Of a stretch of DNA of 64,000 bases, positions 6,728 through 54,457 are shown in pieces. Below the pieces are notes generated by a model. The model did no database searches, was not told the origin of the DNA, and saw only the letters and a program-made list of their open reading frames with translations. Positions within the stretch are counted from its first letter, which is position 1; each line of letters opens with the position of its first letter. This stretch comes from a phage, in sequence record OZ335960.1. One strand, given 5' to 3'. A program made the position numbers and the translations under genes.

Positions 6728-7948
<1,221 letters not shown>

Positions 7949-12168: not shown

Positions 12169-12219
12169 AAATTTTCCGCTTAGTTAATAGATAGTGACTC
12201 GTCCGTGAGTCAAATTATA

Positions 12220-14484
12220 TCATAATTTACAGGATGAACAATCTTCAGCTTTTGGAGTTTCTATTTCATAATCATCAGTACCAGAACCGTCACGGGTATT
12301 ATGATAATAGAAATTTTTTCCGCCAAAATACCAAAAATACAAAAGGTCATCAATCATTATTGACATTGGAACCTTTCCTTTTGGAAAAATCTGCGGGTCA
12401 TAATATGTATTCGCTGAAGCTGATTGACACACCCATTTCAGCATAATAGCTACTTGCGTAAGATAAGGTTTATTGCCTTTCTTAGCTAATTTCCATGTAT
12501 AATCATAGAGGTCTATGTTGTGCTCAATATTGGGCACGACTTGATTAAAGGAGCCCTCTTTTGATTCTTTAACAGAGACTGGTCCACGTGGAGGCTCGAT
12601 ACCGTTTGTACTGTTAGAAACTTGGGAAGATGACTCACATGGCATAAGTGCTGATAATGTGCTATTACGGATGCCAAAGAGCTTAAGGTCTTCCCGCAGC
12701 GACGACCAGTCACAAACGTATTTTGGAGCTGCGATTTGGTCAATCTTTTTATTGTACCAGTCGATAGGTAATTCGCCTCGAGACCAACGAGTGTCTGAAT
12801 AATATTCGCAAGGTCCTTTTTCTTTGGCGAGCTTAATGGATGCTTTAATGAGTCCATACTGTAATCTCTCAAATAGTTCATGTGTTAAATCGTTAGCATC
12901 TTCATAAGAAGCAAAATTACTTGCTAGCCAAGCTGCATAGTTAGTAACACCTACGCCAAGGTTTCGACGTTTTTTAGCTTTTTCTGCTTCAGGAACTGGA
13001 TATCCTTGGTAATCCAAAAGATTATCAAGAGCACGAACTTGGACTTCTGCCAATTCATTAATTTTATCTTGGTCTTGCCAATCGAAGTTATCTAACACAA
13101 ATGCAGATAACGTACACAATCCAATTTCAGCATCAGGACTATTCACATCATTTGTTGGAATAGCAATTTCACAACACAAGTTGCTCTGACGAATAGGTGC
13201 CTTTTCACGAATAAATGGCGTATAGTTATTCGTATTATCAATGAACTGCACATAAATCCTTGCTGTTCCTGAGCGTTCAGTCATGAGCAATTCAAACAGT
13301 TCACGGGCTTTAATACGCTTTTTACGAATATTAGGGTCTTTTTCTGCAGCTTCGTATAATTCACGGAAACGGTCTTGGTCTTTAAAATAAGAATAATAAA
13401 GTTCGCCACCCATTTCATGCGGACTGAACAAAGTAATGTAATCATTCTTTCCGAATCGTTCCATCATTAGGTCATTCAGTTGAACGCCATAATCCATATG
13501 ACGGATACGGTTTTCTTCTACACCTTTGTTATTTTTCAAAACGAGAAGATTTTCAACTTCCAAATGCCAAATAGGATAATAAGCAGTAGCAGCGCCGCCA
13601 CGAATTCCACCCTGTGAACATGATTTAACTGCAGTCTGAAAATGTTTCCAAAAAGGAATAACACCAGTATGACGCACTTCACCCATTCCAATCTTAGAAC
13701 CTTCGGCACGAATCATACCAACGTTAATACCAATTCCAGCGCGTTTGGAGATATATTCAACAATTGAAGCAGAAGCCTTATTGATAGACTTTAATGAATC
13801 ACCTGCCTCAATAACAACGCATGAACTAAACTGCCGAGTTGGAGTACGGCAACCAGCCATAATAGGGGTTGGCAGTGAAATCTGTCGAGTAGATACTGCT
13901 TCATAAAAACGAATAACATGTTTTAATCTATCAACAGGTTCATCTTGATGCAATGCCATTCCAATAGTCATAAATGCAAACTGTGGAGTTTCATAAATTT
14001 GACCAGTGGTTTTATCTTTAACTAGATATTTTTCTTTTAATTGCATCGCCCCGGAATAAGTAAATTCCATATCCCGCTCGTGCTTAATTTTTGATTCTAA
14101 AAATGTAATTTCTTCTGCTGAATATTTTGACAACAATTCAGGGTCGTATTTACCTTCATTTACACAGTAAGAAATATGGTCAATAAATGAACGGGGCTCA
14201 TACTGCCCGTAAACATGCTTACGAAGAGCGAACATTAAACACCGTGCAGCTACATATTGATAATCAGGCTCTTCAACTGAAATAGAATTCGCAGCAGCCT
14301 TAATGACAATAGTCTGAATGTCATCAGTTGTCATTCCATCACGGAGATATGATTTAATATTTTCATATAATTCATAAGGATCTACAGATGTTCCTTCAGC
14401 TGCCCAAGATAAAACTTTAATAATTTTTTGCGGGTCAAAGCTCTGAGAAACACCACTACTTTTGATAACATTAATTAATTGCAT
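12220..14484 (-). CDS. nrdA: ribonucleotide reductase alpha subunit
   Basis: 754 aa; ATP-cone N-terminus, catalytic cysteines, C-terminal CxxC tail. Confidence 0.95.
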   Translation of the reverse strand: MQLINVIKSSGVSQSFDPQKIIKVLSWAAEGTSVDPYELYENIKSYLRDGMTTDDIQTIVIKAAANSISVEEPDYQYVAARCLMFALRKHVYGQYEPRSFIDHISYCVNEGKYDPELLSKYSAEEITFLESKIKHERDMEFTYSGAMQLKEKYLVKDKTTGQIYETPQFAFMTIGMALHQDEPVDRLKHVIRFYEAVSTRQISLPTPIMAGCRTPTRQFSSCVVIEAGDSLKSINKASASIVEYISKRAGIGINVGMIRAEGSKIGMGEVRHTGVIPFWKHFQTAVKSCSQGGIRGGAATAYYPIWHLEVENLLVLKNNKGVEENRIRHMDYGVQLNDLMMERFGKNDYITLFSPHEMGGELYYSYFKDQDRFRELYEAAEKDPNIRKKRIKARELFELLMTERSGTARIYVQFIDNTNNYTPFIREKAPIRQSNLCCEIAIPTNDVNSPDAEIGLCTLSAFVLDNFDWQDQDKINELAEVQVRALDNLLDYQGYPVPEAEKAKKRRNLGVGVTNYAAWLASNFASYEDANDLTHELFERLQYGLIKASIKLAKEKGPCEYYSDTRWSRGELPIDWYNKKIDQIAAPKYVCDWSSLREDLKLFGIRNSTLSALMPCESSSQVSNSTNGIEPPRGPVSVKESKEGSFNQVVPNIEHNIDLYDYTWKLAKKGNKPYLTQVAIMLKWVCQSASANTYYDPQIFPKGKVPMSIMIDDLLYFWYFGGKNFYYHNTRDGSGTDDYEIETPKAEDCSSCKL

Positions 14485-15902: not shown

Positions 15903-15946
15903 TTAGTACCTTATATAAATTATAATACATTTTATGAAGCTAATAA

Positions 15947-16294
15947 TCAATACGGTTTAGCATCAAATTTTCTTTCAATTTCAGGCGTAAAATATAATTC
16001 TTTACCACGCTTGGAAAAGCGACCAATAATATGATAATTATTCTCATCAAACGTGATATTGCCGATATCCATAGCTTTCAACCAAATATCGATATTTCTG
16101 TCAAGCTTTATATCAAAATTCCAATACGGAGAATTATTACCAAAAATACTACAAGCGGATTCAGTGAAACAACTGCTATAAATTTTGTCTTTAGGAACTA
16201 CTAATTGATAGACTCCTTTAATAAACTGAGGACCTTGCCATTTTGGTTGTTTCGCGTCTTTTTCTAATAGAATAGGATAATAATTAAAATTCAT
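15947..16294 (-). CDS. hypothetical protein inserted between frd and td
   Basis: Track ORF 119 aa from a GTG; likely ATG at 16294 (116 aa); occupies a junction where, as recalled, T4 frd and td directly overlap. Confidence 0.5.
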   Translation of the reverse strand: MNFNYYPILLEKDAKQPKWQGPQFIKGVYQLVVPKDKIYSSCFTESACSIFGNNSPYWNFDIKLDRNIDIWLKAMDIGNITFDENNYHIIGRFSKRGKELYFTPEIERKFDAKPY

Positions 16295-16314
16295 ATTTTC
16301 CGCCACGTGTTATT

Positions 16315-17141
<827 letters not shown>

Positions 17142-17149
17142 TTTATCTC

Positions 17150-17485
17150 CTAATATAAAGGATCGGGAACATATCCACTAGCTTTAATCATTTTAATTAA
17201 TGTTAACATTCCTTTATTAACTGCTAGTGAAATTTCATCAAAAACTTCATCACTAAAAAGTTCTAACACGCCCTTCTGAACTTTTAGTTTACAGCCAACA
17301 ATTTCGTCATCGCCTATAGTAAATTCGTTTCCGCCAATTCCACCGAAAAACTTAATTACGCCAGTTAACTGTCTTCCACGAGAATATGGGTCGTGCGATA
17401 AAGTAATATGAGTCACCCCAGGTACAGTTTTAAATTGGCAGCGGATGTTTACTTGAGCAATTCCAGTTACATGAATGTCAGACAT
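17150..17485 (-). CDS. hypothetical protein
   Basis: ORF track 111 aa. Confidence 0.45.
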   Translation of the reverse strand: MSDIHVTGIAQVNIRCQFKTVPGVTHITLSHDPYSRGRQLTGVIKFFGGIGGNEFTIGDDEIVGCKLKVQKGVLELFSDEVFDEISLAVNKGMLTLIKMIKASGYVPDPLY

Positions 17486-17495: not shown

Positions 17496-17738
17496 TCAAA
17501 CAGTCTTTTTCACAATTTTCCAATCAGCTTTAAACTGTTCAACATCAGAATGGTAAATCCAGAATCCTGCGCTTTCTCCATCCTCGTAAAGAGGGCATCC
17601 ATCACATTCATCTTCCCATCCCATGTCACGCAAAAGATGTTCAGCTTTTTCAACAAGTTCAGAATCTTTACCGATGATATTAAAATACCATTTACCTCTA
17701 ACTTCTGAATCTTTAATACTCTGGCGTTGTAATCTCAT
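17496..17738 (-). CDS. hypothetical protein
   Basis: ORF track 80 aa; early promoter at 17848-17876 upstream. Confidence 0.45.
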   Translation of the reverse strand: MRLQRQSIKDSEVRGKWYFNIIGKDSELVEKAEHLLRDMGWEDECDGCPLYEDGESAGFWIYHSDVEQFKADWKIVKKTV

Positions 17739-17847
17739 TTTATTCTCCTTAGCAAGCTTTAATCAAAAGATATAAACAGACCAACATAACTATTGCCATA
17801 ATATAAGGTGCGAACATTTTCTTTTCTCCATTAGTTTTGATAGGGTA

Positions 17848-17876
17848 ATAGTATCACACTACTACCCTTTTGTAAA
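17848..17876 (-). promoter_or_regulatory. T4-type early promoter
   Basis: Minus strand GTTTACA, 17 nt, TACTAT. Confidence 0.55.
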
Positions 17877-18307: not shown

Positions 18308-18535
18308 TTATTGTTCAATTAATCCCATGTAAAATTCTGTGTCTTCAGAATCCATACCATCACAATATTCATTAGCCATAAAGCGGGTGAGGTCTTCAAG
18401 AGGACCTTCAATAACGATTTGAATACTCCAAAACTTAGAATCTTGCACGCTTGTGATACTAAGTTCAGGATAACGATTACGAATAATTTCTTCGATATAT
18501 TCAAAATCAACGATGTCAATATCAACTTTAGCCAT
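18308..18535 (-). CDS. hypothetical protein
   Basis: Track ORF (TTG start at 18610) trimmed to ATG 18535 (MAKVDIDIV...) with RBS AAGAGGAAA, because the early promoter at 18579-18607 lies inside the longer version. Confidence 0.45.
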
Positions 18536-18578
18536 ATTATTTTCCTCTTTAATCATCAGCAGTATTGCCGATAGTCGT

Positions 18579-18607
18579 ATAGTACCACAGTTCTTATAGT
18601 ATGTAAA
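18579..18607 (-). promoter_or_regulatory. T4-type early promoter (conserved cassette copy)
   Basis: Minus strand TTTACA, 17 nt, TACTAT within the conserved ...GTTTACA...CTGTGGTACTATAC... cassette. Confidence 0.6.
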
Positions 18608-18631
18608 CAACTTTGTGAAAAAATTTTTGAA

Positions 18632-18658
18632 ATAAAAAAGGGGACCTCTAGGGTCCCC
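18632..18658 (-). terminator. rho-independent terminator downstream of gene 32
   Basis: Minus strand GGGGACC-CUAGA-GGUCCCC followed by a U-run. Confidence 0.65.
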
Positions 18659-19589: not shown

Positions 19590-19656
19590 TTTTATTTCCT
19601 TTTTAATTTAATTAACAGTTGGTGCTATGACGATGTATGACCTCATAGCTGGTCAG
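19590..19656 (-). promoter_or_regulatory. gene 32 translational operator (5' pseudoknot plus unstructured A/U-rich leader)
   Basis: Leader contains GACCAGCUAUGAGGUCAUACAUCGUCAUAGCAC followed by AACUGUUAAUUAAAUUAAAAAGGAAAUAAAA before the AUG; this is the known gp32 autoregulation site. Confidence 0.6.
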
Positions 19657-19662
19657 TGAGAT

Positions 19663-19687
19663 AATTATAATCTATTTATAATAAGCA
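19663..19687 (-). promoter_or_regulatory. overlapping late (TATAAATA) and MotA-box middle promoter elements for gene 32
   Basis: Minus strand TGCTTAT-TATAAATAGATT-ATAATT. Confidence 0.5.
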
Positions 19688-19688
19688 A

Positions 19689-21954: not shown

Positions 21955-24900
21955 ATGGCCGAGATTAAAAGAAAGTTCAGAGCAGAAGATGGTCTGGACG
22001 CAGGTGGCGATAAAATAATCAACGTAGCTTTAGCTGATCGTGCCGTAGGAACTGACGGTGTTAACGTTGATTACCTAATTCAAGAAAACACAGTTCAACA
22101 ATACGATCCAACTCGTGGATATTTAAAAGATTTTGTAATCATTTATGATAACCGCTTTTGGGCTGCTATAAATGATATTCCAAAACCAGCGGGAGCTTTT
22201 AATAGCGTACGTTGGAGAGCATTACGTACTGATGCAAACTGGACAACTGTTTCGTCAGGACCTTATCAATTAAAGTCAGGTGAATCAATTTCAGTTAATA
22301 CTGCAGCAGGAAATGATATCACATTTACTTTGCCAACTTCTCCAATTGATGGAGATACTATCGTTCTTCAAGATATTGGTGGAAAACCTGGAGTTAACCA
22401 AGTTTTAATTACCGCTCCAGTGCAAAGCATTGTAAATTTTAGAGGTCAGCAAGTACGATCAGTATTAATGACCCATCCAAAATCACAGATAGTTTTAATT
22501 TTTAGTAATCGTCTGTGGCAAATGTATGTTGCTGATTATAGCAGAGAAGCTGTAATTGTGACGCCAGCAAGTCTCTATCAGGCGCAGTCAAACGATTTTA
22601 TCGTACGCAGATTTACTTCTGCTGCTGCAATTAATATTAAACTTCCTAGATTTGCTAATCATGGCGATATTATTAATTTCGTTGATTTAGATAAATTAAA
22701 TCCTCTTTATCATACAATTGTCACGACATATGATGAAACAACTTCAGTACAAGAAGTTGGAACTCATTCTATTGAAGGTCGTACATCGATTGATGGTTTC
22801 TTGATGTATGATGATAATGAGAAATTATGGAGATTATTTGACGGGGATAGTAAAGCACGTTTACGCGTTATAACAACTAATTCTAATATTCGTCCAAACG
22901 AAGAAGTTATGGTATTTGGTGCGAATAATGGAACAACTCAAACAATTGAACTTCAGCTTCCGACCGATATTTCCATTGGCGATACTGTTAAAATTTCCAT
23001 GAATTACATGAGAAAAGGCCAAACAGTTAAAATAAAAGCTGCCGGTGAAGATAAAATTGCTTCTTCAGTTCAATTGCTGCAATTCCCAAAACGTTCAGAA
23101 TATCCACCTGAAGCTGAATGGGTGACTGTTCAAGAATTAGTTTTTAACGGTGAAACTAATTATGTTCCAGTTTTACAACTTGCTTATATCGAAGATTCTG
23201 ACGGAAAATACTGGGTTGTACAGCAAAACGTTCCAACTGTAGAAAGAGTTGATTCTTTAAATGATTCTACTAGAGCAAGATTAGGCGTGATTGCTTTAGC
23301 TACACAAGCTCAAGCTAACGTCGATTTAGAAAATTCTCCACAAAAAGAATTAGCAATTACTCCAGAAACATTAGCTAACCGTACTGCTACAGAAACTCGT
23401 AGAGGTATCGCAAGAATAGCAACCACTGCTCAAGTGAACCAGGACACTACATTCTCTTTTGCTGATGATATTATCATCACTCCTAAAAAGCTGAATGAAA
23501 GAACTGCTACAGAAACTCGTAGAGGTGTTGCTGAAATTGCTACGCAACAAGAAACTAATACAGGTACTGATGATACTACAATCATCACTCCTAAAAAGCT
23601 TCAAGCTCGACAAGGTTCTGAATCATTATCGGGTATTGTAACCTTTGTATCTACCGCGGGAGCTACTCCAGCTTCTAGTCGTGAATTAAATGGTACAAAT
23701 GTTTACAATAAAAACACTAATAATTTAGTTGTTTCGCCTAAAGCTCTGGATCAGTATAAAGCTACTCCAACACAGCAAGGCGCAGTAATTTTAGCAGTTG
23801 AAAGTGAAGTAATTGCTGGACAGAGTCAAGAAGGATGGGCAAATGCGGTTGTAACGCCAGAAACGTTACATAAAAAGACATCAACTGATGGAAGAATTGG
23901 TTTAATTGAAATTGCTACGCAAAGTGAAGTTAATACAGGAACTGATTATACTCGTGCAGTCACTCCTAAAACTTTAAATGACCGTAAAGCAACTGAAAGT
24001 TTAAGTGGTATAGCTGAAATTGCTACGCAAGTTGAATTCGACGCAGGCGTCGACGATACTCGTATCTCTACACCATTAAAAATTAAAACCAGATTTAATA
24101 GTACTGATCGTACTTCTGTTGTTGCTCTATCTGGATTAGTTGAATCAGGAACTCTCTGGGACCATTATACCCTTAATATTCTTGAAGCAAATGAGACACA
24201 GCGTGGTACACTTCGTGTAGCTACACAAGTTGAAGCTGCTGCAGGGACATTAGATAATGTTCTAATAACTCCTAAAAAGCTTTTAGGTACTAAATCTACT
24301 GAAGCGCAAGAAGGCGTTATTAAAGTTGCAACTCAAGTTGAAACTGTAGCTGGAACGTCAGCAAATACTGCTGTATCTCCAAAAAATTTAAAATGGATTG
24401 TACAGAGTGAACCTACTTGGGCAGCAACTACTTTGATAAGAGGTTTTGTTAAAACTTCATCTGGTTCAATTACATTCGTCGGTAATGATACCGTTGGTTC
24501 AACACAGTCATTAGAATTATACGAGAAAAATAGCTATGCAGTATCTCCATATGAATTAAACCGTGTATTAGCAAATTATTTGCCGTTAAAGGCAAAAGCT
24601 GCTGACACGAATTTATTGGATGGTCTAGATTCATCCCAGTTCATTCGTAGGGATATTGCGCAGACGGTTAATGGTTCACTAACCTTAACTCAACAAACGA
24701 ATCTGAGTGCCCCTCTTGTATCATCTAGTACTGCTACGTTTGGTGGATCAGTTTCGGCAAATAGTACACTAACTATTTCTAATACTGGAACAGCAACTAA
24801 ATTGATTTTTGAGAAAGGACCTCAAACTGGAACGAACCCAGCGCAGACGATGACTGTCAAAGTGTGGGGAAATCAATTTAGTGGGGAATCAGATACAACA

Positions 24901-27675: not shown

Positions 27676-29125
27676 ATGGCTACTTTAAAACAAATACAAT
27701 TTAAAAGAAGCAAAACCGCAGGAGCACGTCCTGCCGCTTCAGTATTAGCCGAAGGTGAATTGGCTATAAACTTAAAAGACCGCGTACTTTTTACTAAAGA
27801 CGACCAAGGAAATATCATTGATCTTGGTTTTGCTAAGGGCGGTAGTATTGACGGGAATGTTATTCATATAGGAAACTATAATCAAACTGGTGATTATACT
27901 TTAAATGGCACCTTCACTCAGACGGGTAATTTTAATTTAATCGGTATTGCTCGAGTAACTCGCGATATTATTGCCGCCGGGCAGATTATGACCGAAGGCG
28001 GAGAACTTATTACAAAAAGTTCAGGTACATCACATGTTCGTTTTTTCGATAGCAATAGCCGCGAGCGCGGAATCATTTATTCTCCTGCTAATGATGGATT
28101 AACTACACAAGTACTTAATATCAGGGTTCAAGACTACGCCGCTGGTAGCGAAAGCACCTATGCATTTTCAGGCAATGGCCTATTTACTTCACCTGAAGTA
28201 TCAGCATGGAAATCTATGTCAACTCCTCAGATTTTGACCGATAAAGTTATTACAGATGGGAAGAAGACAGGCGATTATGACATCTATTCATTAGCAAATA
28301 ACACTCCATTGGCAGAAAGCGAAACGGCTATTAACCACCTCCGTGTTATGCGAAATGCCGTAGGATCTGGTATATTCCATGAAGTTAAAGATAACGACGG
28401 GATAACCTGGTACGCCGGTGACGGATTAGATGCCTATCTTTGGTCGTTTACCTGGTCCGGTGGATTGAAAGCAGGCCATTCTATTTCTATAGGTCTTCCG
28501 GGCGGCTCTAAAGGATATTCTGAATTAGGGACTGCTTCGATTGCTCTTGGTGATAATGATACTTGGTGATAATGATACTGGTTTAGTCCATGGCGGTGAT
28601 GGCCGAATCAATATGGTTGCCAATGGTATACATATTGCAAACTGGGGCGCAGGCTATCAATCTCATCCTGGGCTTTGGGATTCAACCGGTGCTTTTTGGA
28701 CAGAAGTTGGAAGAGCTATCGTTTCTCATGGGCATCTCGTTCAGGCAAATGATAGTTATTCAACGTTTGTCCGTGATGTTTATGTCCGTTCTGATATTCG
28801 CGTTAAAAAAGACCTCGTTAAATTTGAAAATGCTTCTCAGAAGCTTTCTAAAATTAACGGTTACACTTATATGCAGAAGCGAGGCCTAGATGGAGAAGGT
28901 AATCAGAAATGGGAACCTAACGCTGGTTTAATTGCTCAAGAAGTTCAAGCTATTTTACCAGAATTAGTTGAAGGCGACCCTGATGGCGAAGCTTTACTTC
29001 GTTTGAACTATAACGGTGTAATTGGTTTAAATACAGCTGCAATCAATGAGCATACCGCAGAAATTGCAGAACTTAAATCAGAAATCGAAGAACTTAAAGC
29101 ATTAGTTAAATCGTTGTTAAAATAA
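27676..29125 (+). pseudogene. 37: long tail fibre distal subunit gp37, frameshifted by a 16-bp tandem duplication; C-terminal intramolecular-chaperone-like domain
   Basis: N-terminal frame 27676-28569 (297 aa, MATLKQIQFKRSK... conserved gp37 N-terminus) ends at TGA created by the duplication; the +1 frame continues LGDNDTGLVHGG... to 29125 and ends with an SDIRVKKD...GLIAQEVQ... domain. Confidence 0.7.
28547..28578 (+). repeat. perfect 16-bp tandem duplication (TTGGTGATAATGATAC x2) inside gene 37
   Basis: Copy 1 at 28547-28562, copy 2 at 28563-28578; creates in-frame TGA at 28567-28569. Confidence 0.9.
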
Positions 29126-29156
29126 TAAGAGGGGCTTCGGTCCCTTGGAGGTTTAT

Positions 29157-29951
29157 ATGGCAGTTGAAGGACCGTGGGTAGGATGGTCTGCAGTAGTTAA
29201 TACAGGACAAAATTGGATGGGTGGTGCGGCCCAACGATTAAGAATGGGCATTCCGTTCTGGATGAGTAATATGATAGGTCGATCCGTTGAAGTAATTCAC
29301 ACACTTGGAGCAGACCATAACTTCAATGGTCAATGGTTCCGAGATAGATGTTTTGAGGCAGGTAGTGCACCCATAGTGTTTAATATCACAGGAAATTTGG
29401 TATCATATTCTAGAGATGTTCCTTTATTCTTCATGTATGGAGATACACCAAATGAATATGTTCAGTTGAATATTAGCGGTGGAGCTCATATGTGGGGCAG
29501 AGGTGGACAAGGTGGGTGGACTCATTCTGGTGGAGATGGTAATGGTCAACAGGGTGGACATTGTATTCAAAATGACATTGGTGGTCGATTAAGAATTAAT
29601 AATGGTGGAGTAATTTGTGGCGGCGGTGGCGGCGGTGGCGGCATCGCTTATCGTCCTCACTCTGGTGCAAACTGGCAAGATATTGGTGGCGGTGGAGGAA
29701 GACCATTTGGCCCAGGAGGTGGCGGTGGTTATTCAGGAGGTGCTGCTTCTTATGACGGTCCAGGAGGCGGTTATAATTATGGTAATGCTCACTCTGGACA
29801 GGGTGGTGATGCTGGCGGAAATGGACAAAATGCCTGGTATGATGGTGGTAAAGTTCTAAAAGTTGGCGCTGGCGGGGCTGCAGGTTATGCTGTAATAGGG
29901 TCTGCTCCAACATGGCAAAATGTTGGAATAATATATGGTCCAAGAGTATAA
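29157..29951 (+). CDS. 38: T2-type receptor-binding adhesin gp38 with glycine-rich motifs
   Basis: Track ORF starts at TTG 29145; ATG at 29157 with GGAGG RBS gives 264 aa; conserved N-terminal attachment region then poly-Gly runs (GGGGGGGG, GGGGG) separating variable segments. Confidence 0.8.
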
Positions 29952-29982
29952 TTTTGAATAAATATCCTTAAAAGGAGGGTCT

Positions 29983-30924: not shown

Positions 30925-31077
30925 TCAATTAGTTGACTTTGTTATAATATCATCAGACGCTTGATTTGTAAACTGGTCTGTGGTATTTTCTTCAAAAATT
31001 TTTTCTACGAATTCCTTGAACGACTTACGTTCCTGAGCTACATTATGCTCGATTACTTTTTCAAGATTATGACTCAT
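30925..31077 (-). CDS. small hypothetical protein (below track cutoff)
   Basis: Hand translation MSHNLEKVIEHNVAQERKSFKEF... 50 aa; ATGA overlap with the arn stop; contains the asiA promoter in its 3' part, so coding status is uncertain. Confidence 0.3.
   Translation of the reverse strand: MSHNLEKVIEHNVAQERKSFKEFVEKIFEENTTDQFTNQASDDIITKSTN
30944..30972 (-). promoter_or_regulatory. T4-type early promoter for asiA
   Basis: Minus strand GTTTACA, 17 nt, TATTAT about 30 nt before the asiA start. Confidence 0.55.
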
Positions 31078-32731: not shown

Positions 32732-33367
32732 TCACAGTTCAGATGCTACGGTGATTACTGCTTCAATGTTTTCTGCCGAGCGTTTAATGTCAAGATACAC
32801 ATTACCGTTTTTAGCGATTTTACATGACATTCCGATATCAGTAAATTTCTGAATATAGTGTTCCATCATTTTGTATCCAAAAATTCGCATATTTCCGTTG
32901 TTGTTAATTTCAAAATTGCGAATTCCGTGAGTACGTTTTTCTAAAATAGCAAGATAGTTACTGCGGTAAGTTTCAACCTTTTTAAGAACAAATCCATTTT
33001 CATCTAAAAGTTTTAACATGAAGTCTTTATCTTCTTCCATATCGGAAGTAATCTCACGAGCTTTACGAGTTGCTCGTTTTTTCAGTAGTTCAGGAGCATT
33101 TTCCTGTGCGTATAAAGTTGCCGCATTTGAAATAATATCCTGAGCTTCACCAGTAATGATTAATCCATCACCGGATTTCTCCACCAGGCCTTTTTTAATC
33201 AATACCCCAATATTACTATTAACTACTGCATTACCTAAATCTGGATGCACCTCACGAACTTCTGCAGCTGTAATGAAATCTTTCTTAGCAATGGTAATTA
33301 AAATTGCAGCAGTTTTTTCATTCAGAACATCGTTAGAAGCTTTGATGATGTAAGTTACTTTAGACAT
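32732..33367 (-). CDS. motA: MotA middle-transcription activator
   Basis: 211 aa; early promoter copy immediately upstream; matches recalled T4 MotA. Confidence 0.9.
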   Translation of the reverse strand: MSKVTYIIKASNDVLNEKTAAILITIAKKDFITAAEVREVHPDLGNAVVNSNIGVLIKKGLVEKSGDGLIITGEAQDIISNAATLYAQENAPELLKKRATRKAREITSDMEEDKDFMLKLLDENGFVLKKVETYRSNYLAILEKRTHGIRNFEINNNGNMRIFGYKMMEHYIQKFTDIGMSCKIAKNGNVYLDIKRSAENIEAVITVASEL

Positions 33368-33408
33368 TTTCTAATCTCCGTAATTCTGTATCAGTAGTTG
33401 ATAGTTGT

Positions 33409-33437
33409 ATAGTACCACAGTATGCTTTGGTTGTAAA
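33409..33437 (-). promoter_or_regulatory. T4-type early promoter for motA (conserved cassette copy)
   Basis: Conserved cassette ...GGTTTACA...CTGTGGTACTATACAACTATCAACTACTGATAC... Confidence 0.6.
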
Positions 33438-33463
33438 CCGTTTTGTGAAAAAATTTTTGAAAT

Positions 33464-33489
33464 AAAAAAGGGAGAGCCTCAGCTCTCCC
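33464..33489 (-). terminator. rho-independent terminator downstream of gene 52
   Basis: Minus strand GGGAGAGC-UGAG-GCUCUCCC followed by a U-run. Confidence 0.6.
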
Positions 33490-33494
33490 TAAAA

Positions 33495-36582: not shown

Positions 36583-36681
36583 AGTAAGCGTTTAATACAT
36601 CAATCATTAAAACGATTGGGAATATACTCAAAACTACTAGTATTATAACTACATTCCATATAGCTTTAACAATCTTTTTCA
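36569..36681 (-). CDS. small membrane protein
   Basis: Track ORF 36569-36817 reads through an early promoter; real start ATG 36681 with GGAGGAA RBS gives 37 aa (MKKIVKAIWNVVIILVVL...). Confidence 0.4.
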
Positions 36682-36709
36682 TTTTCTGTTCCTCCGTAGT
36701 TGATAGTTG

Positions 36710-36738
36710 TATAGTACCACAGAGGAACAGTCTTGTAA
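36710..36738 (-). promoter_or_regulatory. T4-type early promoter (conserved cassette copy)
   Basis: Same about 45-bp conserved cassette, TTTACA-17-TACTAT. Confidence 0.6.
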
Positions 36739-36957
36739 ACAACTTTTTTAAAAATATTCGTAATAAATGTGAATACCAATCACTACTGCCGAAACTTGCG
36801 CAACCCACCACGCACAAGCAATAAGCACAGAATTCAAAATTTTCATAATAACCTCATTACAAAAGTAAATGTTAAACAAATTAATGGAATACTAATTAAC
36901 CAAACAAAACACCACCACAATGAACTCATAGTTCAATCTCAACGATTTTCATTTTAC

Positions 36958-37164
36958 TCAATAATCTGCTAAAAGATCGACGATTGCATCACGAAGACAC
37001 TTATTCGCAATACGTTTAAGAGCAATTTCAGTTTCTGGAGCATTTTGAATAATCATTGAATTCAATTCAGCCTCAGCAAACTGAAGTTCTTTAACTAATT
37101 CAGCTTTATATTTTCCTTGCCCTTTCTTAGCTTTTGCTCGTTTTAATTCAGCTGTAGTAAACAT
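36958..37164 (-). CDS. hypothetical protein
   Basis: Track ORF (TTG start) trimmed to ATG 37164 with GGAGAAT RBS; early promoter copy at 37199-37227. Confidence 0.45.
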   Translation of the reverse strand: MFTTAELKRAKAKKGQGKYKAELVKELQFAEAELNSMIIQNAPETEIALKRIANKCLRDAIVDLLADY

Positions 37165-37198
37165 TTTATTCTCCAAATCCGTATCAGTTGATAGTTGT

Positions 37199-37227
37199 AT
37201 AGTACCACAGTCCTTGTGGTATGTAAA
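37199..37227 (-). promoter_or_regulatory. T4-type early promoter (conserved cassette copy)
   Basis: Same conserved cassette, TTTACA-17-TACTAT. Confidence 0.6.
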
Positions 37228-37245
37228 CCGTTTTGTGAAAATTTT

Positions 37246-37803
37246 TTAAATGGAAAGATACCATCCGTTGTAGTTGCTTTTTCTTACAACCTTACGAAGG
37301 TCTTCTCTATCACCGATGAACTTCGGAGTGTACTGGATGACACCTGGGTGAATTTCTTTAGTGTTGAATATAATTATACAGTCAGCGACCTGATGATTCA
37401 GAATGGGCCCTAGATTTATTCCAGAACCATATGGATACTCTCCGCTGCATCCTGTTGTTACAGAAATCCAACGTGAGTCAGTTTGATGTGTCTTAACTTC
37501 TACACGAAGCCCGCAATATCTTGGATGCGCCAATACATCCCATGCGTATGTATACGGGTCATTAACATCCTCTTGGCCTTTGTTAACATACCCGCTTAGC
37601 CAATCTGCTACAAAAAACTCTGCGTACACCGCGATACGACATCTTTCAATAACTTCTGCTTTATCCTGATTTGGATTTTGTTTTAAAGAGTATCTTGCTG
37701 TATCAGCAATTTTGACCTTCATTTCACTAGTCAAGTCACTGTTCGATAGGGTAAATGTCGGAATCTGAAATAGTCTCTGTAAACCCGGATTCGTTTTCTG
37801 CAT
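37246..37803 (-). CDS. denB: endonuclease IV
   Basis: 185 aa, matches recalled T4 DenB. Confidence 0.85.
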   Translation of the reverse strand: MQKTNPGLQRLFQIPTFTLSNSDLTSEMKVKIADTARYSLKQNPNQDKAEVIERCRIAVYAEFFVADWLSGYVNKGQEDVNDPYTYAWDVLAHPRYCGLRVEVKTHQTDSRWISVTTGCSGEYPYGSGINLGPILNHQVADCIIIFNTKEIHPGVIQYTPKFIGDREDLRKVVRKSNYNGWYLSI

Positions 37804-38065: not shown

Positions 38066-38103
38066 AATTTTTCCTTAAAACAAAAGGGCCGAAGCCCCTT
38101 ATT

Positions 38104-38298
38104 TTATTTGAATTGTGCAATTCTTTTTTCTAAACAATCTGCGTAAGATTTCATTGAGATGAACTGTGAAAGCAGTAATTCTTGCTCAACTTCATTAATC
38201 GTTAGAAACTTTGTGCTTTCTAAAAATTTGCTCAGTGCATTAATTTTGAGCATTAATTGATCGTATTCTTCTTTTACTCGTGCTTGATAACCTAACAT
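38104..38298 (-). CDS. hypothetical protein flanked by UUCG hairpins
   Basis: ORF track 64 aa; GGGCC-UUCG-GGCCC type hairpins on both sides. Confidence 0.4.
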   Translation of the reverse strand: MLGYQARVKEEYDQLMLKINALSKFLESTKFLTINEVEQELLLSQFISMKSYADCLEKRIAQFK

Positions 38299-38326
38299 AA
38301 TTTTCCTTAGTTAAGGGCCGAAGCCC

Positions 38327-39265
38327 TTATTTAAATTGTTCAGTAACGTCTTCAACTACTTCGTATTGGCAGGTACGCATTTTAGCATCATTGTAATCAA
38401 TCGGAATTGATACTACATCGCGAGGATGTACTTTAACTTTTACAACTCGACTGGTTGAACTGCCAAAGTGACGAATATAAGATTTAGAACACACATGCAG
38501 ACCATGAGAACAAGTTTGTGTATCATCGTCATTCACGCGAGTACGTGGCATTTTAACTACTTTACCGGGACTGTTATCAAAAGTATTTGAATGACAGTCA
38601 AAGTAATTGCTGCGAACTACTTTCCAAGCATAGAAGTAACCATCTTCTGTAATTTCAATATCGTTTGCTACCAAGAAATCAAAGAGTCGAGATACTGCTT
38701 TTTGGCTTGGGTTTTCCAACAGATTTTCCAAGAACGGAAAATAAAATTCAAAGTTTTCACCTTTTTCCATCGAATCGAGAATACGATCAACTAAACCAGA
38801 CCGCAATTCAATATTTTGATAGAACAAGCTTCCACCTTCAATTCGAACATCACCGGAAATATATTTTTCAACAGCGCGGCGAACATTAATTTTTTGTGCC
38901 GCTTCTTCCAATTTATCTGCAACAAGCAGATTAAGAATTTCCTGGAAGTTTGAATGAGTATTAGGAGTTGCGTTATAAGTTACACCGTCAACAGTAATTG
39001 AAATGAATTTTTTAGATGCATTCCAAATAATGTCAGATTTAGCAACTGGAGCGATAGCTGTATCGCTATTAACTTTAACCGTAATATCACCACTAATAGT
39101 AACTTTAGAGCGCTCAGCTTCTTCAGCATTTTTCAAAACACGACGGATTGTGTCAACCGATACACCTTGCCAATCAGCCAATTCCTGCTGGGTGTAATTA
39201 CCACTTGAATACAGTTTGACAATTTCAGCTTGTTCGTTTTTGGTCAGGCATTTAATATTGTACAT
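38327..39265 (-). CDS. rIIB: rIIB protein
   Basis: 312 aa, matches recalled T4 rIIB. Confidence 0.9.
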   Translation of the reverse strand: MYNIKCLTKNEQAEIVKLYSSGNYTQQELADWQGVSVDTIRRVLKNAEEAERSKVTISGDITVKVNSDTAIAPVAKSDIIWNASKKFISITVDGVTYNATPNTHSNFQEILNLLVADKLEEAAQKINVRRAVEKYISGDVRIEGGSLFYQNIELRSGLVDRILDSMEKGENFEFYFPFLENLLENPSQKAVSRLFDFLVANDIEITEDGYFYAWKVVRSNYFDCHSNTFDNSPGKVVKMPRTRVNDDDTQTCSHGLHVCSKSYIRHFGSSTSRVVKVKVHPRDVVSIPIDYNDAKMRTCQYEVVEDVTEQFK

Positions 39266-41722: not shown

Positions 41723-43540
41723 CTACTGGCTCATCCATTCTTTACGAAGGTCAGCATTATCTCCCATGAGCATTTCAAAAAGCTCTTTCCAGTTCTCAGG
41801 AAGTTTAACAACATCATATACCGGGTTTTGAATCATCTCACGATATTCAGATTTTTCCAAAGAGCCAAGTCCCTTAATATAACGGATGCTATGTTTAGGT
41901 AGAGCATCTTTGGCACTCTCATATTCAGCGACTGTATAAAACCATTCTTGTTTTTTACCGACCTGGGCGATGATTACAGGAGTTTTGACGAAACGAATTC
42001 TTCCTTGTTCAAACAGTTCTGGCCAATTACTAAAAAATCCGAGCAGAGAAGGATAAATGCTTCCTAGACCATCGTGGTCAGCATCGGTCATAATAGCAAT
42101 ATTATGATAATTCAAGTTTTCAGCTTTTTCACCAAGAACTAATCCAGTGATTGCGCAAATATCAAATAGTTCTTTGTTTTTAAGCATATCAGCATATGAC
42201 ATACCCCAGCTATTAAGAACTTTACCACGCAATGGATAACCACCATGAAGTTCTTTATCACGAACATCAATAAGATATCCGATAGCAGAATCACCCTCAG
42301 TCAAGAAAAGAGTAGTATCAGCATCTTTACCGCAAAGATTCGCTTTAATGTGTTTATGAACCTTAGCTTTAGAAGCCTTTTTAGCTGCTTTAGTTTCTGC
42401 TGCCTTTTCTGCCGCCAATTTACGAGCCAAGGCAGCTTCAATAATTGGCATTAAAATTGCTTCATTATTTAAAATAGCACGTGAAATCTTTTTAGCATCA
42501 AGCTGAATATGACTACGAATTTCACCAAATGGAGAAGTCAAACGCTCTTTAGTCTGAGAATCAAATCGCATGTTTTTCATATCACGAACAAACATAACGA
42601 TAGTCAAACATTCTTTAACCCGTGCTTTAGTTACATCAATTTTAAACTTGCGTTTGATTTGTGGAATAAGGTCTTCACAAATATCATCCATAACGCAGTC
42701 AATGTGATGGCCACCATTCTTAGTATGAATGTTATTGACGTATGTTAATTGACGAAAACCATCCGGTGAACGACCGACTGCAATAGAACAGTTTTCCTGT
42801 TCTTGAACGATAGCATGCTCATCATATTGGCGTGCATATTTCTTAAAATTACCCTGAACCTTTTTACCATTAAAGGTAAATTGAATATCAGGATAAACTA
42901 CTGCAAGTGTCTGGAGACGATCCAGTGTAATGTCAAGATAAACTTGAGATAGCTCATTAGTTTCAAATGACATAAAATCAGGAATGAAAGTAACACGAGT
43001 TCCTTTCCATTTTCCAGGAATAGTTTCCCATGATTTATTTTCCATGCCATTTGAACAACGAACTACAATATTATTTTGACCGTCGCCAGTTTCACCGACA
43101 AACATCACAGAAAAAATGTTAGTTAAACTAGAACCAACACCGTTCATACCGCCAGTGACGCGTTCTTTATCATCACCAAAGTTACCACCTGCTTTTGGAA
43201 TAGTCCATGCAGCAACAGGACCAGGAATTTCTTCACCAGTAGGTGTTTTAACCATCGCTTGCGGAATACCACGACCGTTATCTTCAACTGTTACTTGATT
43301 GTTTTTGATAGTAACATTAATTTTATTCGCGAATTTAAACTTAGTACGAATACCTTCATCTACTGAGTTATCGATAATTTCATCAATAAGCTTAACAAGA
43401 CCAGGTACATACTGAACACTTTCCCATTTACCAAACAGAAAGCGCTCATGCATTTCATTAGCAGAAGAACCAATGTACATGCCGCTACGCTTTTTGATAT
43501 GTTCAATATCGCTCAGAATTTTAATTTCATTCTTAATCAT
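41723..43540 (-). CDS. 39: DNA topoisomerase II large subunit gp39, unsplit (covers T4 genes 39 and 60)
   Basis: Track ORF starts at GTG; ATG 43540 with GAGGA RBS gives 605 aa; GHKL ATPase N-terminus, TOPRIM C-terminus; the C-terminal 120 aa match recalled T4 gp60 without the bypass segment. Confidence 0.9.
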   Translation of the reverse strand: MIKNEIKILSDIEHIKKRSGMYIGSSANEMHERFLFGKWESVQYVPGLVKLIDEIIDNSVDEGIRTKFKFANKINVTIKNNQVTVEDNGRGIPQAMVKTPTGEEIPGPVAAWTIPKAGGNFGDDKERVTGGMNGVGSSLTNIFSVMFVGETGDGQNNIVVRCSNGMENKSWETIPGKWKGTRVTFIPDFMSFETNELSQVYLDITLDRLQTLAVVYPDIQFTFNGKKVQGNFKKYARQYDEHAIVQEQENCSIAVGRSPDGFRQLTYVNNIHTKNGGHHIDCVMDDICEDLIPQIKRKFKIDVTKARVKECLTIVMFVRDMKNMRFDSQTKERLTSPFGEIRSHIQLDAKKISRAILNNEAILMPIIEAALARKLAAEKAAETKAAKKASKAKVHKHIKANLCGKDADTTLFLTEGDSAIGYLIDVRDKELHGGYPLRGKVLNSWGMSYADMLKNKELFDICAITGLVLGEKAENLNYHNIAIMTDADHDGLGSIYPSLLGFFSNWPELFEQGRIRFVKTPVIIAQVGKKQEWFYTVAEYESAKDALPKHSIRYIKGLGSLEKSEYREMIQNPVYDVVKLPENWKELFEMLMGDNADLRKEWMSQ

Positions 43541-43609
43541 CACTTATCCTCGTTTGGTTTCGGGAATATTATACTCCGGTAATCATAAAGCTAAAGGCCC
43601 GAAGGCCTT

Positions 43610-43882
43610 TTATTTAAAACGGATAGTCGAATCCTTGAAGAATAGACCAGAACATACGGTTCCTTCTACTTTCTGCCCGGTAGGTCCAATAGCACGAAAT
43701 CCAGTATGTTGGAAATCATTTTCAGAGCAACCGAACCAATTGTATCCAGTGATTTCAATATTAGTAAAACCGCTTGAAGACAAAACTTTGGTTGCATTAT
43801 CAGCATCAGTACATCCTGCTAAAGACACTGCTAATACTAATGCCGCGATAGAACGATTAACATATTTCATAATTTCACTCAA
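43610..43882 (-). CDS. putative lipoprotein
   Basis: ORF track 90 aa; signal peptide with lipobox (LAGCTD); start may be the internal ATG 43870. Confidence 0.5.
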   Translation of the reverse strand: MSEIMKYVNRSIAALVLAVSLAGCTDADNATKVLSSSGFTNIEITGYNWFGCSENDFQHTGFRAIGPTGQKVEGTVCSGLFFKDSTIRFK

Positions 43883-44246
43883 ATTTAATGGCTTGAAGGA
43901 GACTAATAATTCTTAAACGGCTTCTTTCATCTTTAACCGTAAAAGAAAGAGGGTCGCCAGATTTCATAGTGATAGTGCATTCAAAACTAAAATCTTCAGG
44001 AACTTCTTCGAAGAAGTCAAATTCTTCATCATATATTAGAACATTACTCTGAAAACTGTGAAGAATTTTTCCGTCATTTCCAGATGCTGTACTAATCATT
44101 GTAACATTATTACCTTTCATATCTTCAACGATAAATTCGCTTGTAGATATTACGGCATTAATAGAACCATTCCTATAAATAGAAGAAAGCAGATATTTCT
44201 TTTCTTCACCTTCACGAATGCGATATTTCTTACCGATTTTAAACAT
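43875..44246 (-). CDS. hypothetical protein
   Basis: Track ORF (GTG at 44252) trimmed to ATG 44246. Confidence 0.45.
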   Translation of the reverse strand: MFKIGKKYRIREGEEKKYLLSSIYRNGSINAVISTSEFIVEDMKGNNVTMISTASGNDGKILHSFQSNVLIYDEEFDFFEEVPEDFSFECTITMKSGDPLSFTVKDERSRLRIISLLQAIKFE

Positions 44247-45075: not shown

Positions 45076-45357
45076 TTAATTGAACAGTGGAGCGATGCGT
45101 TTCAGAAGAGTGGCAGCACCTTTGGCGAATTTTACATCATGAAAAACAGTTTCTTCTTCCGTTACAACACGAACTTTAATGTTTTCACAATCCCAATTTT
45201 TACGAACAATCTTCAAAAGCTGCAGTAAATCTTTACATTCAGCAATATCGATAACACATCCACGAGAATCTTCCATTATCGCACGATAACCGTAAGCCAT
45301 ACCATAATCGTTGAAAGATTGTTCGATGATAATTAAGTTTTCCATTTTATTCTCCAA
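45076..45357 (-). CDS. hypothetical protein
   Basis: ORF track 93 aa; degenerate early-promoter copy upstream. Confidence 0.45.
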   Translation of the reverse strand: MENKMENLIIIEQSFNDYGMAYGYRAIMEDSRGCVIDIAECKDLLQLLKIVRKNWDCENIKVRVVTEEETVFHDVKFAKGAATLLKRIAPLFN

Positions 45358-45442
45358 ATTGTTTTCTGTATCAGTAGTTGATATTGATATAGTACCATAA
45401 TCAACTACTGATGTATATAGTTTTATGAAAAAATTTTAAACT

Positions 45443-45940
45443 TTATGCACAGCGGGCTTTGCTATAGTGTTTAATCCAACTTTCTGGAATGACTTTGTAT
45501 GTTCCTAAAAATACCGCGTTGTACAACTTAACGCCATCTTCTACCCACTGATCGGTAATGTATGCACACATAGCGCGAGTACGGTGTTTTTGAACAACCC
45601 CTTCCTCATCTTCAGTAAATTCGAATTCATAAGGAGCAACGAACTTAATAGCTTGACCGAGTTTCCACTTAAAGTCTACGCCTACATGCGAAGTATCAAT
45701 CGTTTCAATTCCTTTAGCAGGAACAGCTTTCAAAAACGCAGACTCAATAAATTTCGCACGAACATAGCCAAACTGAGGTTTAGATTTTCCATCTTTAGGA
45801 ATGATACGCACTTTTACTTCAGAATCTTCATCTTTAACACCGTGTTTAAGCTGAATGCTTACAATTTCAACCAATTTTCCTGCTGCTTTAGAACGGGATT
45901 TATCAGATACACGAGCAATTTCACCAATATTAATAATCAT
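45443..45940 (-). CDS. hypothetical protein, paralog A (motB-region)
   Basis: ORF track 165 aa; C-terminal motif C.YITDQWVEDGVKLYNAV shared with the 46017-46559 ORF. Confidence 0.5.
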   Translation of the reverse strand: MIINIGEIARVSDKSRSKAAGKLVEIVSIQLKHGVKDEDSEVKVRIIPKDGKSKPQFGYVRAKFIESAFLKAVPAKGIETIDTSHVGVDFKWKLGQAIKFVAPYEFEFTEDEEGVVQKHRTRAMCAYITDQWVEDGVKLYNAVFLGTYKVIPESWIKHYSKARCA

Positions 45941-47089: not shown

Positions 47090-47118
47090 ATAATACCACA
47101 ACTAACCGAGGAAGTAAA
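47090..47118 (-). promoter_or_regulatory. T4-type early promoter
   Basis: Minus strand GTTTACT, 17 nt, TATTAT directly downstream of the dexA stop. Confidence 0.5.
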
Positions 47119-48304: not shown

Positions 48305-48536
48305 ATTTAATTAGTAATTTACAGACACTTTCATCTAGCGTAATTACCGTGTCTGTATTACTGTGATATGATTGTTTTTCAATTCGTTTAATTGCTAGTA
48401 TAGTATCACTTATAAGATTAAGCTTATAAAGGAGCTCAGCTCCTGTTACCATAACACTGAGGTTATCTTGCTTATCAGTATGCTTCTTTATACCATCTAT
48501 TAGACGATTTAAATATTTTGAATTGATGTTAATCAT
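48276..48536 (-). CDS. hypothetical protein
   Basis: ORF track 86 aa. Confidence 0.4.
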   Translation of the reverse strand: MININSKYLNRLIDGIKKHTDKQDNLSVMVTGAELLYKLNLISDTILAIKRIEKQSYHSNTDTVITLDESVCKLLIKFEEAIRGNN

Positions 48537-48542
48537 ATATCC

Positions 48543-50948: not shown

Positions 50949-50977
50949 ACTATAACATTTTTACTTCAGCTTGTAAA
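50949..50977 (-). promoter_or_regulatory. T4-type early promoter upstream of the srd-position ORF
   Basis: Minus strand GTTTACA, 17 nt, TATAGT. Confidence 0.55.
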
Positions 50978-54388: not shown

Positions 54389-54417
54389 ATTATACCATAC
54401 TCATTTTGGAAAGTAAA
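54389..54417 (-). promoter_or_regulatory. T4-type early promoter
   Basis: Minus strand GTTTACT, 17 nt, TATAAT (perfect -10). Confidence 0.6.
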
Positions 54418-54427
54418 CCGGTAAAAT

Positions 54428-54451
54428 GAAAAAGGACTCCCGAAGGAGTCC
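54428..54451 (-). terminator. rho-independent terminator downstream of soc
   Basis: Minus strand GGACUCC-UUCG-GGAGUCC followed by a U-run; same hairpin sequence as at 2398-2415. Confidence 0.6.
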
Positions 54452-54457
54452 TTGAAA

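Follow-up and report, generated by a model that had tools for sequence, protein, structure and literature searches.

The DNA analyzed here is a 64,000-nucleotide stretch of a phage genome (sequence record OZ335960.1), referred to below as the window and numbered along one strand. Around positions 33409-33437, a 10-kb slice matches many sequenced Tequatrovirus (T4-like) phages at 96-98% identity, and on the T4 map the window corresponds to the span that runs from approximately 128 kb across the origin to 28 kb. This span includes 30.x, cd, pseT, nrdAB, td, frd, and 32, followed by the tail-fibre genes 34-38 on the plus strand, and beyond the tail fibres by asiA, motA, 52, ndd, denB, rIIB, rIIA, 39, motB, dexA, dda, modA, soc, 61, 41, uvsX, 42, and imm. 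Judged from its sequence, the window is a segment of a Tequatrovirus genome.

The motA promoter region

The site at 33409-33437 lies on the minus strand and faces motA. When the region was read in the direction of transcription, the first element was a hairpin, AGGGAGAGCTGAGGCTCTCCCT, followed by a T-run (33469-33490), the best terminator-like match in our scan. It ends the upstream gene 52/motA.1 unit and forms the stem-loop part of a composite cassette; T4 carries the same hairpin upstream of motA with one loop base different. Next comes an A/T-rich, UP-element-like tract, TTTTTTATTTCAAAAATTTTTTCACAAAACG (33439-33468), which is kept across the copies described below and has 31 exact nt in common with the copy upstream of the frd.3 orthologue. 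The -35 element GTTTACA (33432-33438) matches the T4 early consensus GTTTAC, and the pattern search placed an extended -10 element, TGgTACTAT (33409-33417), behind a 17-bp spacer. From the spacing, transcription is predicted to start at 33402, the A of CT-A-TCAA, 7 nt past the -10. The resulting motA mRNA leader would be approximately 35 nt long (33368-33401) and unstructured (fold z = 0.01), with a GGAG ribosome binding site (RBS) at 33376-33379 that by sequence match lies inside a RegB/S1-type site, GGAGATTAGAA. The motA coding sequence of 211 aa (32732-33367, start codon at 33367) was identified from the open reading frame and from the annotation of relatives and T4. Since the core, leader, and terminator upstream of T4 motA are identical in type, we assign 33409-33437 as the motA early promoter.

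The cassette family and related promoters in the window

The first-pass annotation had described this site as one of a family of near-identical 45-bp minus-strand cassettes at 18579, 33409, 36710, 37199, and 63063, with a degenerate copy near 45386. Those coordinates are the low ends of the minus-strand -10 hexamers; here the copies are named by the position of the -35 element: 18607 (frd.3), 33437 (motA), 36739 (ndd.4), 37227 (denB-proximal), 45417 (motB-cef), and 63091 (imm.1). The recurrence was borne out. A core, CTGTGGTACTATACAACTATCAAC, is common to the six minus-strand copies with a chance expectation of nil, and the pattern GTTTACA-N-TGGTACTATA gave five matches in the window, all on the minus strand (18578-18608, 33408-33438, 36710-36740, 37198-37228, and 63062-63092), and none in shuffled sequences. 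Exact matches to the 21-nt core TGGTACTATACAACTATCAAC lie at 33397, 36699, 37187, and 63051 (chance expectation 0), and matches with three mismatches at 18567 and at 45377; the last of these belongs to the degenerate copy, in which ATATACA replaces GTTTACA. Near-identity holds for a core of approximately 25-27 nt and for the UP-like tract (AAAAATTTTTTCACAAAAC, upstream of the -35 and kept across copies); the 30-mer quoted in the annotation is exact at two sites only (37181-37210 and 63045-63074). The spacers between -35 and -10 fall into several types, the motA leader has an additional ACT (CAACTACTGATAC), and in the ndd.4 copy the leader type changes after CAACTAC. An unbiased repeat search ranked the cassette first in size among the direct-repeat families of the window (D1, eight copies, 73 nt).

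A plain two-hexamer sigma-70 scan of the window showed no enrichment (68 found vs 71.8 expected). The sites are therefore called promoters on the strength of the extended pattern and of orthology. TGgTACTAT, with TG at -15/-14, is present in all six copies, and the extended -10 with TG is also found at 13 of the diverged sites. When GTTTAC(A/T), a spacer of 17 +/- 1 bp, and TAnnnT were required, five copies matched exactly, the exception being copy 45417 with its ATATACA. Up to seven elements were distinguished per cassette: a terminator hairpin, which only some copies have, the UP-like tract, GTTTACA, TGgTACTAT, CTATCAA, the leader, and a GGAG RBS, the leader being 22-37 nt long across the copies. 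All copies lie on the minus strand, which is the early strand, and each faces an early gene; the downstream genes include the T4 early orthologues motA, frd.3, ndd.4, imm.1, and the gene upstream of cef.

The frd.3-orthologue copy (18533-18658, minus strand) consists of the gene 32 terminator hairpin GGGGACCCTAGAGGTCCCC, analogous to the one at motA, the UP tract, a -35 at 18602-18607, a -10 at 18579-18584, and a leader variant, ACGACTATCGGC, that leads to a start codon at 18535. The ndd.4-orthologue copy (36680-36775, minus strand; -35 at 36734-36739, -10 at 36711-36716, start codon at 36682) has a spacer, CTGTTCCTC, that is complementary to its leader, GAGGAACAG, RBS included. Downstream of denB lies the denB-proximal copy (37162-37262, minus strand; -35 at 37222-37227, -10 at 37199-37204, start codon at 37164), with a perfect RegB site, GGAGAATAAAA, at 37164-37174. 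It drives a 72-aa ORF that is absent from T4 (36958-37164 from ATG; the mechanical ORF listing gives 36958-37176, from an upstream TTG). The degenerate copy between motB and cef (45343-45452, minus strand; -10 at 45389-45394, start codon at 45345) has a perfect RegB site at 45345-45355 and a 13-bp inverted repeat, ATCAGTAGTTGAT/ATCAACTACTGAT, that brackets the -10. The gene behind it is a 93-aa ORF between motB and cef, and T4 has the same motB-cef element; with ATATACA in place of GTTTACA this copy may be weak as a promoter. The imm.1-orthologue copy occupies 63026-63126 on the minus strand (-35 at 63086-63091, -10 at 63063-63068, start codon at 63028).

T4 itself has the exact core at motA, ndd.6, imm.1, nrdC.8, nrdC.10, and e.8; its copies at frd.3, the motB-cef gap, denV, and ndd.4 are degenerate. 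A 111-nt cassette query matched 570 phage records, typically at seven to nine places per Tequatrovirus genome. In the close relative OL960580.1 two copies in the ndd region are annotated as 'similar to phage T4 early promoter GTTTAC(N14)gtggTAttaT', the promoter at the ndd.4 site being annotated as overlapping a predicted terminator, and in U76612.1 the -35 and -10 signals are annotated at the nrdC.10 copy.

More diverged promoters had been listed at 1944, 2338, 17848, 30944, 47090, 50949, 54389, and 57594, and all eight fit the extended pattern upstream of an early gene: TTTAC(A/T), a spacer of 16-17 nt, and TGnTAnnnT on the minus strand. The 30.8 orthologue is preceded by the promoter at 1947-1974 (TTTACT, 16 nt, TATTAT, with TG), whose -10 is flanked by the arms of an 8-bp inverted repeat and which has a RegB site, GGAGAATAAAA, downstream. 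At 2338-2366 (repeat families D3 and D18) a terminator hairpin precedes the promoter at 2387-2416, and the spacer TCCTTTGT is complementary to the RBS region ACAAAGGA. TTTACA, 17 nt, and TACTAT are found at 17848-17876 upstream of the frd.2 orthologue (family D1). Further sites lie upstream of asiA (30944-30972, where an orthologous T4 site is present), dexA (47090-47118, found by pattern and repeat search), srd (50949-50977, families D2 and D20), mrh.2 (54389-54417, family D18, with a terminator hairpin before it at 54423-54452), and dmd (57594-57622, family D20, where the arms ACAAGACT and AGTCTTGT of an 8-bp inverted repeat flank the -10). Five promoters of the same form, absent from the first-pass annotation, were found at 6055, 9379, 41722, 52312, and 57119, as were two weaker ones without TG at 21908 and 46013.

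The elements match the T4 class, the orthologous T4 sites have the same core and leader, and a relative already carries the annotation; the reading of these sites as early promoters was thereby upheld. The cassettes are very probably T4-type immediate-early promoters read by host sigma-70, each with its leader and RBS as a portable expression cassette.

Leaders and hairpins

In several copies the identity reaches 20-45 nt past the -10, and it had been suggested that a conserved 5' UTR element might be carried there. Conservation into the leader stood up to analysis, as a start-site consensus plus a RegB-type RBS, but a folded element did not. CTATCAA, in the first part of the leader, is best seen as the start-site region common to promoters of this class, since it is also the consensus of promoters that are not near-identical: after removal of the near-identical copies, T4 early-type promoters still show c.TATCAA directly after the -10, and early promoters of the Mosigvirus PhAPEC2 show a strong gtCCTATCAA. 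The C preference reported at -3 to -1 (Nolan et al.) agrees with this consensus. The last part of the leader is the RBS, TTTGGAGAATAAAATG, which contains GGAGAATAAAA, the exact RegB/S1 optimum. The optimum for the RegB endoribonuclease with ribosomal protein S1 has been given as GGAGAAUAAAA, and the T4 motA and motB RNAs are good RegB substrates (Durand 2006). In the window the RegB/S1 11-mer occurs five times vs 0.43 expected, each time on the minus strand at an RBS. The consensus GGAGRAYARAA is perfect in copies 37227 and 45417 and has one mismatch in copies 63091 and 33437; copy 18607 (GAGG) and copy 36739 (GGAGGAACAGA) depart from it. Given the near-identity of the sequences to those of T4, RegB would be expected to cut at the cassette sites.

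One could instead regard the stretch past the -10 as a distinct cis-regulatory RNA element of the early regulon, such as a structured leader, a riboswitch-like element, an sRNA target, or a protein-binding site. Besides the extent of the identity, this reading can draw on a weak 5'-terminal hairpin, AUCA-ACUAC-UGAU, which can be drawn in three copies, and on a 7-bp version of it in the frd.3 copy. However, leaders folded from the predicted +1 were no better than shuffled sequences (z between 0.01 and 1.38, with the frd.3 copy at only -1.03), the 4-bp hairpin is impossible in the copies without ACT (37227 and 63091), and an Rfam search of the whole window matched no family. Both conserved parts of the leader are already accounted for by the start-site consensus and the RegB/S1 site with the RBS, and leader types have been swapped between copies and between phages at one orthologous site. 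A structured 5' UTR element was rejected on the fold scores, the Rfam result, and this account of the leader, and a separate RNA element of any kind appears very improbable. In the leaders from the predicted +1 no stable fold covers the RegB site, which fits the need of RegB for a single-stranded site. Another role can be proposed for the start-site block CTATCAAC, which, with a C-rich discriminator before it, is common to non-identical Tequatrovirus and Mosigvirus early promoters. T4 early promoters are shut off 2-5 minutes post infection, and according to reviews neither AsiA nor ModA explains this. That the block is the cis target of the shut-off mechanism is conceivable, if very unlikely.

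Two of the six copies (36739 and 45417) have inverted-repeat arms in the spacer and the leader with the -10 in the loop, and it may be asked whether such hairpins are the main point of the cassettes that carry them, and of roughly one-third of early promoters, either by terminating or attenuating read-through transcription or by hiding the RBS so that translation proceeds only from the cassette's own promoter. Both stems are strong: in copy 36739 the repeat CTGTTCCTC/GAGGAACAG covers the RBS and gives the read-through RNA -23.2 kcal/mol (z = -4.95), and the 13-bp repeat of copy 45417 gives -20.7 kcal/mol (z = -4.65). The RBS-covering hairpin can form only in read-through RNA, because the proximal start site lies past the 5' arm. 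We counted perfect inverted repeats of at least 7 bp bracketing the -10 and compared them with shuffled expectation: they occur at 6 of 21 promoters in the window (1.2 expected), at 11 of 33 in T4 (1.5 expected), and at 5 of 13 in PhAPEC2 (0.7 expected), while control arms 60-100 nt farther downstream gave almost no repeats. A search for loci related to dmd gave only five near-identical ones, too close for covariation, and T4 was compared with the Mosigvirus PhAPEC2 instead; the regB and denV arms of PhAPEC2 have a sequence different from those of T4, yet complementarity is kept, with a G-U pair in the T4 regB stem. The 3' arm holds the RBS at 36739 and 2366 and at T4 denV, regB, and nrdC.8.

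These hairpins also have a history. The 1986 record X04567.1 labels inverted repeats B/B', C/C', and D/D' around the -10 of ipII, denV, and regB as potential terminators, with the RBS within the 3' arm for denV and regB, and stem-loops overlapping the -10 are among the PeSL subclasses of Arbiol et al. (2010); in the review of Uzan and Miller (2010), RBS masking is named only for e, soc, 49, and I-TevI, where the promoter is late. We therefore rejected the -10-bracketing hairpins as a new feature, and the earlier record counts on the side of the proposal. Against their being the main point, no U-run follows the stems, which are thus not classic intrinsic terminators, and four of the six near-identical copies have no such repeat, so that hairpins cannot explain the whole family. 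For the cassettes that do have them the proposal comes close to an even call, leaning slightly to the negative. It complements the early-promoter explanation and does not replace it.

Exchange between copies and comparison with known systems

The copies are mosaics of one another. Copy 63091 is chimeric: a run of 44 exact nt through the -35, spacer, and core is shared with copy 36739, and one of 43 through the core and leader with copy 37227. In T4, too, a small number of spacer types and of leader types recur among the copies in mixed combinations. At the ndd.4 site the window has TATACAACTATCAAC vs TATTACCCTATCAAC in five other phages (ACAAC vs TTACCC), and this patch gives copy 36739 near-identity with the T4 nrdC.8 promoter over approximately 60 nt; the patch appears gene-conversion-like. 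The shared ACT leader indel was set aside as evidence of conversion since ACTACT can slip recurrently. The exact identity of the 25-nt core exceeds what polymerase contacts alone need, and the mosaic patterns suggest that the excess is due to conversion.

Gene content also changes beside the cassettes. Behind the denB-proximal copy we found four gene contents among six phages: no extra ORF in T4, ORF-A in this window, ORF-A and ORF-B in SA21RB, and ORF-B in PYps32T, JE01, and BMB16. JE01 and BMB16 have a different leader type at this site, beginning right after CTATCA. The ORF junctions show RBS/start-codon microhomology, and of the two ends of an indel, one lies at the cassette and the far one falls in a short TAAAATGAAA-type microhomology instead of another cassette. 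Two 200-bp differences between the window and T4 lie next to cassettes: 36959-37162 is an ORF inserted directly behind copy 37227, and 45137-45338 corresponds to an internal T4 deletion of the ORF behind copy 45417. The first-pass annotation had proposed that the copies provide dispersed homology for deletion or duplication of intervening genes, to be sought as rearrangements bounded by cassette copies. The mosaic copies, the conversion-like patch, and ORF gain and loss with one end at a cassette support homology-driven rearrangement as in the published PeSL model, but in the comparison with T4 and relatives no deletion or duplication had both ends in cassette copies of the window, and the relatives examined showed no clean deletion between copies 36739 and 37227.

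The same variation might be ascribed to a dedicated site-specific recombination or mobility system for which the cassettes are recognition sites, in place of promoters that recombine by general homology. The 25-nt core is invariant, gene content varies immediately beside a cassette, and Arbiol et al. leave open a targeted recombinase in PeSL exchange. A recognition site should break at a fixed place, however, and the breakpoints found here are not fixed: they lie after CTATCA, in RBS/start-codon microhomology, or anywhere in the core for the chimeric copy. No recombinase gene is associated with the copies, and the phage's own recombination needs only short homology of less than 50 bp (Arbiol et al.). 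We consider a dedicated system highly improbable.

Under the early-promoter explanation, unmodified host sigma-70 RNA polymerase would read the cassettes once the DNA enters the cell, with the alpha C-terminal domains on the A/T-rich UP tract, sigma region 4 on GTTTAC, region 3 on TG, and region 2 on TACTAT, and would initiate at the A of CTATCAA. The single-stranded leader of 22-37 nt would allow immediate ribosome loading at GGAG; minutes later RegB and ribosomal protein S1 would cleave within GGAG(A/G)A(U/C)A(A/G)AA and translation would stop. Upstream terminators or the -10-bracketing hairpins would insulate the unit from read-through transcripts. The near-identity up to the start codon in a subset of copies could have two causes, strong selection on the polymerase and RegB contacts and repeated homologous exchange or gene conversion between copies, and in the PeSL model this exchange would also let ORFs be inserted, lost, or swapped. 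We infer both the exact start sites and conversion as a cause of the near-identity from sequence comparison.

It follows from this analysis that the early-promoter set of a T4-like phage can be recovered from sequence reading alone, and the approximately 20 early promoters listed define the early transcription units of the phage. Genes with a RegB-type RBS are probably translated for the first minutes only. The published PeSL picture, in which promoter, leader, and RBS travel as one unit, holds in this genome.

The feature is a T4 early promoter/PeSL cassette that is already known and annotated. T4 early promoters are exceptionally strong in the T4 literature and are described as an UP element, GTTTAC, TGn, and the -10 plus extra consensus regions (Hinton, 2010, PMC2988021). 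The cassettes agree with the T4 Pe class (Liebig and Rueger, 1989; Miller et al., 2003; reviewed in Hinton, 2010) in UP tract, GTTTAC, 17-bp spacer, TGn with TAnnnT, strand, and gene context, and the T4 copies at motA, ndd.6, and imm.1 share their core and leader types. The window differs from T4 slightly, by the ACT indel in two leaders, the converted ndd.4 discriminator, and the extra ORF behind the denB-proximal copy.

PeSLs are units of approximately 100 bp that combine a promoter, a stem-loop, and an RBS linker and through which ORFs are shuffled (Arbiol, 2010, for RB49/phi1; Comeau, 2014, for PST/T4 and nt-1/KVP40); one published example, the ndd.4/.5 exchange between T4 and PST (Comeau, 2014), concerns the same ndd region as the window copies. 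The likeness extends to the composite of approximately 100 bp (stem-loop, AT-rich tract, -35, -10, RBS, and start codon), to the location in plastic regions, and to ORF indels and mosaic copies; among close relatives, repeated copies lie beside indels and replacements (ORF-A/ORF-B, the leader swap, and the mosaics). Four of the six copies show the full PeSL architecture, two with upstream terminators (18607 and 33437) and two with bracketing hairpins (36739 and 45417); no stem was found at copies 37227 and 63091. Mini-circles were shown for RB49/phi1. The window stems are upstream terminators or -10-bracketing repeats, in contrast to the GGGG...CCCC type of RB49.

The RegB/S1 sites of Durand et al. 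(2006) have the same optimum, GGAGAATAAAA, as copies 37227 and 45417, single-stranded at the RBS. The leader of copy 36739, GGAGGAACAGA, differs by one base from that of T4 nrdC.8, GGAGGAACACA, whose RNA is only moderately cut by RegB (Durand et al., 2006). The RBS-masking hairpins of T4 e, soc, 49, and I-TevI (Uzan and Miller, 2010) likewise enclose a promoter, and the hairpins of copy 36739 and of T4 denV and regB are similar. At e, soc, 49, and I-TevI, however, the enclosed promoter is late and translation is delayed, whereas at copy 36739, T4 denV, and regB the enclosed promoter is early.

RegB/S1 sites and variable ORFs behind the cassettes

The exact optimum of the site targeted by the RegB endoribonuclease with ribosomal protein S1, GGAGAATAAAA, is matched five times in the window against 0.43 expected (1910-1920, 2310-2320, 17738-17748, 37164-37174, and 45345-45355, all on the minus strand), and all five matches fall at ribosome-binding sites of minus-strand early genes. 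Between the denB-proximal copy of the early promoter cassette (37162-37262, minus strand) and ndd.6, the presence of two small ORFs varies among Tequatroviruses: ORF-A (72 aa, MFTTAELKRAK..., at 36958-37176 in the window) and ORF-B (87 aa, MKFKFYYAKHK...). When the interval was compared with that of related Tequatroviruses (L007 559-1034 and L008 556-819), four states were seen (none, A, A+B, and B), and the junctions occur at TAAAATGAAA-type microhomology. A 93-aa ORF behind the degenerate cassette between motB and cef is intact in the window (45076-45357, compared with T4 6550-6557). In T4 it has lost about 200 bp internally; the small reading frame that remains of it in the motB-cef interval is not annotated in NC_000866.

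Gene content relative to T4

Compared to T4, this phage lacks the nrdB and td introns as well as mobE, nrdB.1, segG, segF, dam, and 61.2. The gene 60/60.1/mobA insertion of T4 is also absent, and the large topoisomerase subunit is therefore encoded by a single 606-aa ORF (41723-43543) without translational bypass. The window sites of the T4-relative absences are 11501/11502, 12168-12224, 15353/15354, 19652-19688, 42058-42123, 54741-54813, 55334/55355, and 56769/56770. Two blocks are replaced: the distal tail-fibre/adhesin region encoding the gp37 C-terminus and gp38 (27842-29958), and the segA/beta-glucosyltransferase region (60566-61513), which holds a different 282-aa ORF at 60656-61504. More small ORF-sized insertions relative to T4 were observed in the early regions (5475-5993, 7633-7945, 15906-16306, 16917-17473, 43873-44243, and 48312-48542), the first of them directly behind the early promoter 6055. 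Inside the proximal tail-fibre gene 34, at 23356-24281 on the plus strand, stretches of 33-68 nt recur as diverged direct repeats (families D4 and D10); they probably correspond to the structural motifs that gp34 is known to repeat.

Terminator hairpins and inverted repeats at early promoters

Distant sites in the window carry near-verbatim copies of the same terminator hairpins. The AGGACTCCCGAAGGAGTCCT hairpin (30 nt, 97% identical between copies) is located directly upstream of promoters 2366 and 54417, at 2387-2416 and 54423-54452, and a GGGGCCGAAGCCCC-type hairpin occurs three times (1506-1543, 38071-38108, and 38300-38337), one copy being GGGCCGAAGCCC. These reused hairpins look like the stem-loop halves of promoter-early stem-loop (PeSL)-type units.

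In about one third of early-type promoters the -10 hexamer lies between the two arms, 7-13 bp long, of a perfect inverted repeat: 6 of 21 in the window (1.2 expected), 11 of 33 in T4 (1.5 expected), and 5 of 13 in the Mosigvirus PhAPEC2 (0.7 expected). The window examples, all on the minus strand, are at 45389-45417, 36711-36739, 1947-1974, 2338-2366, 6027-6055, and 57594-57622. The 3' arm often holds the ribosome-binding site, and the repeats may act either by terminating transcription or by masking that site. At regB and denV (T4 locus L004, 12740-12800 and 15360-15412, respectively; PhAPEC2 locus L006, 31460 and 28153), the repeat arms differ between T4 and the Mosigvirus, with complementarity kept in both. 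Such repeats are already on record: X04567.1 labels them potential terminators, and they have been described as a PeSL subclass.
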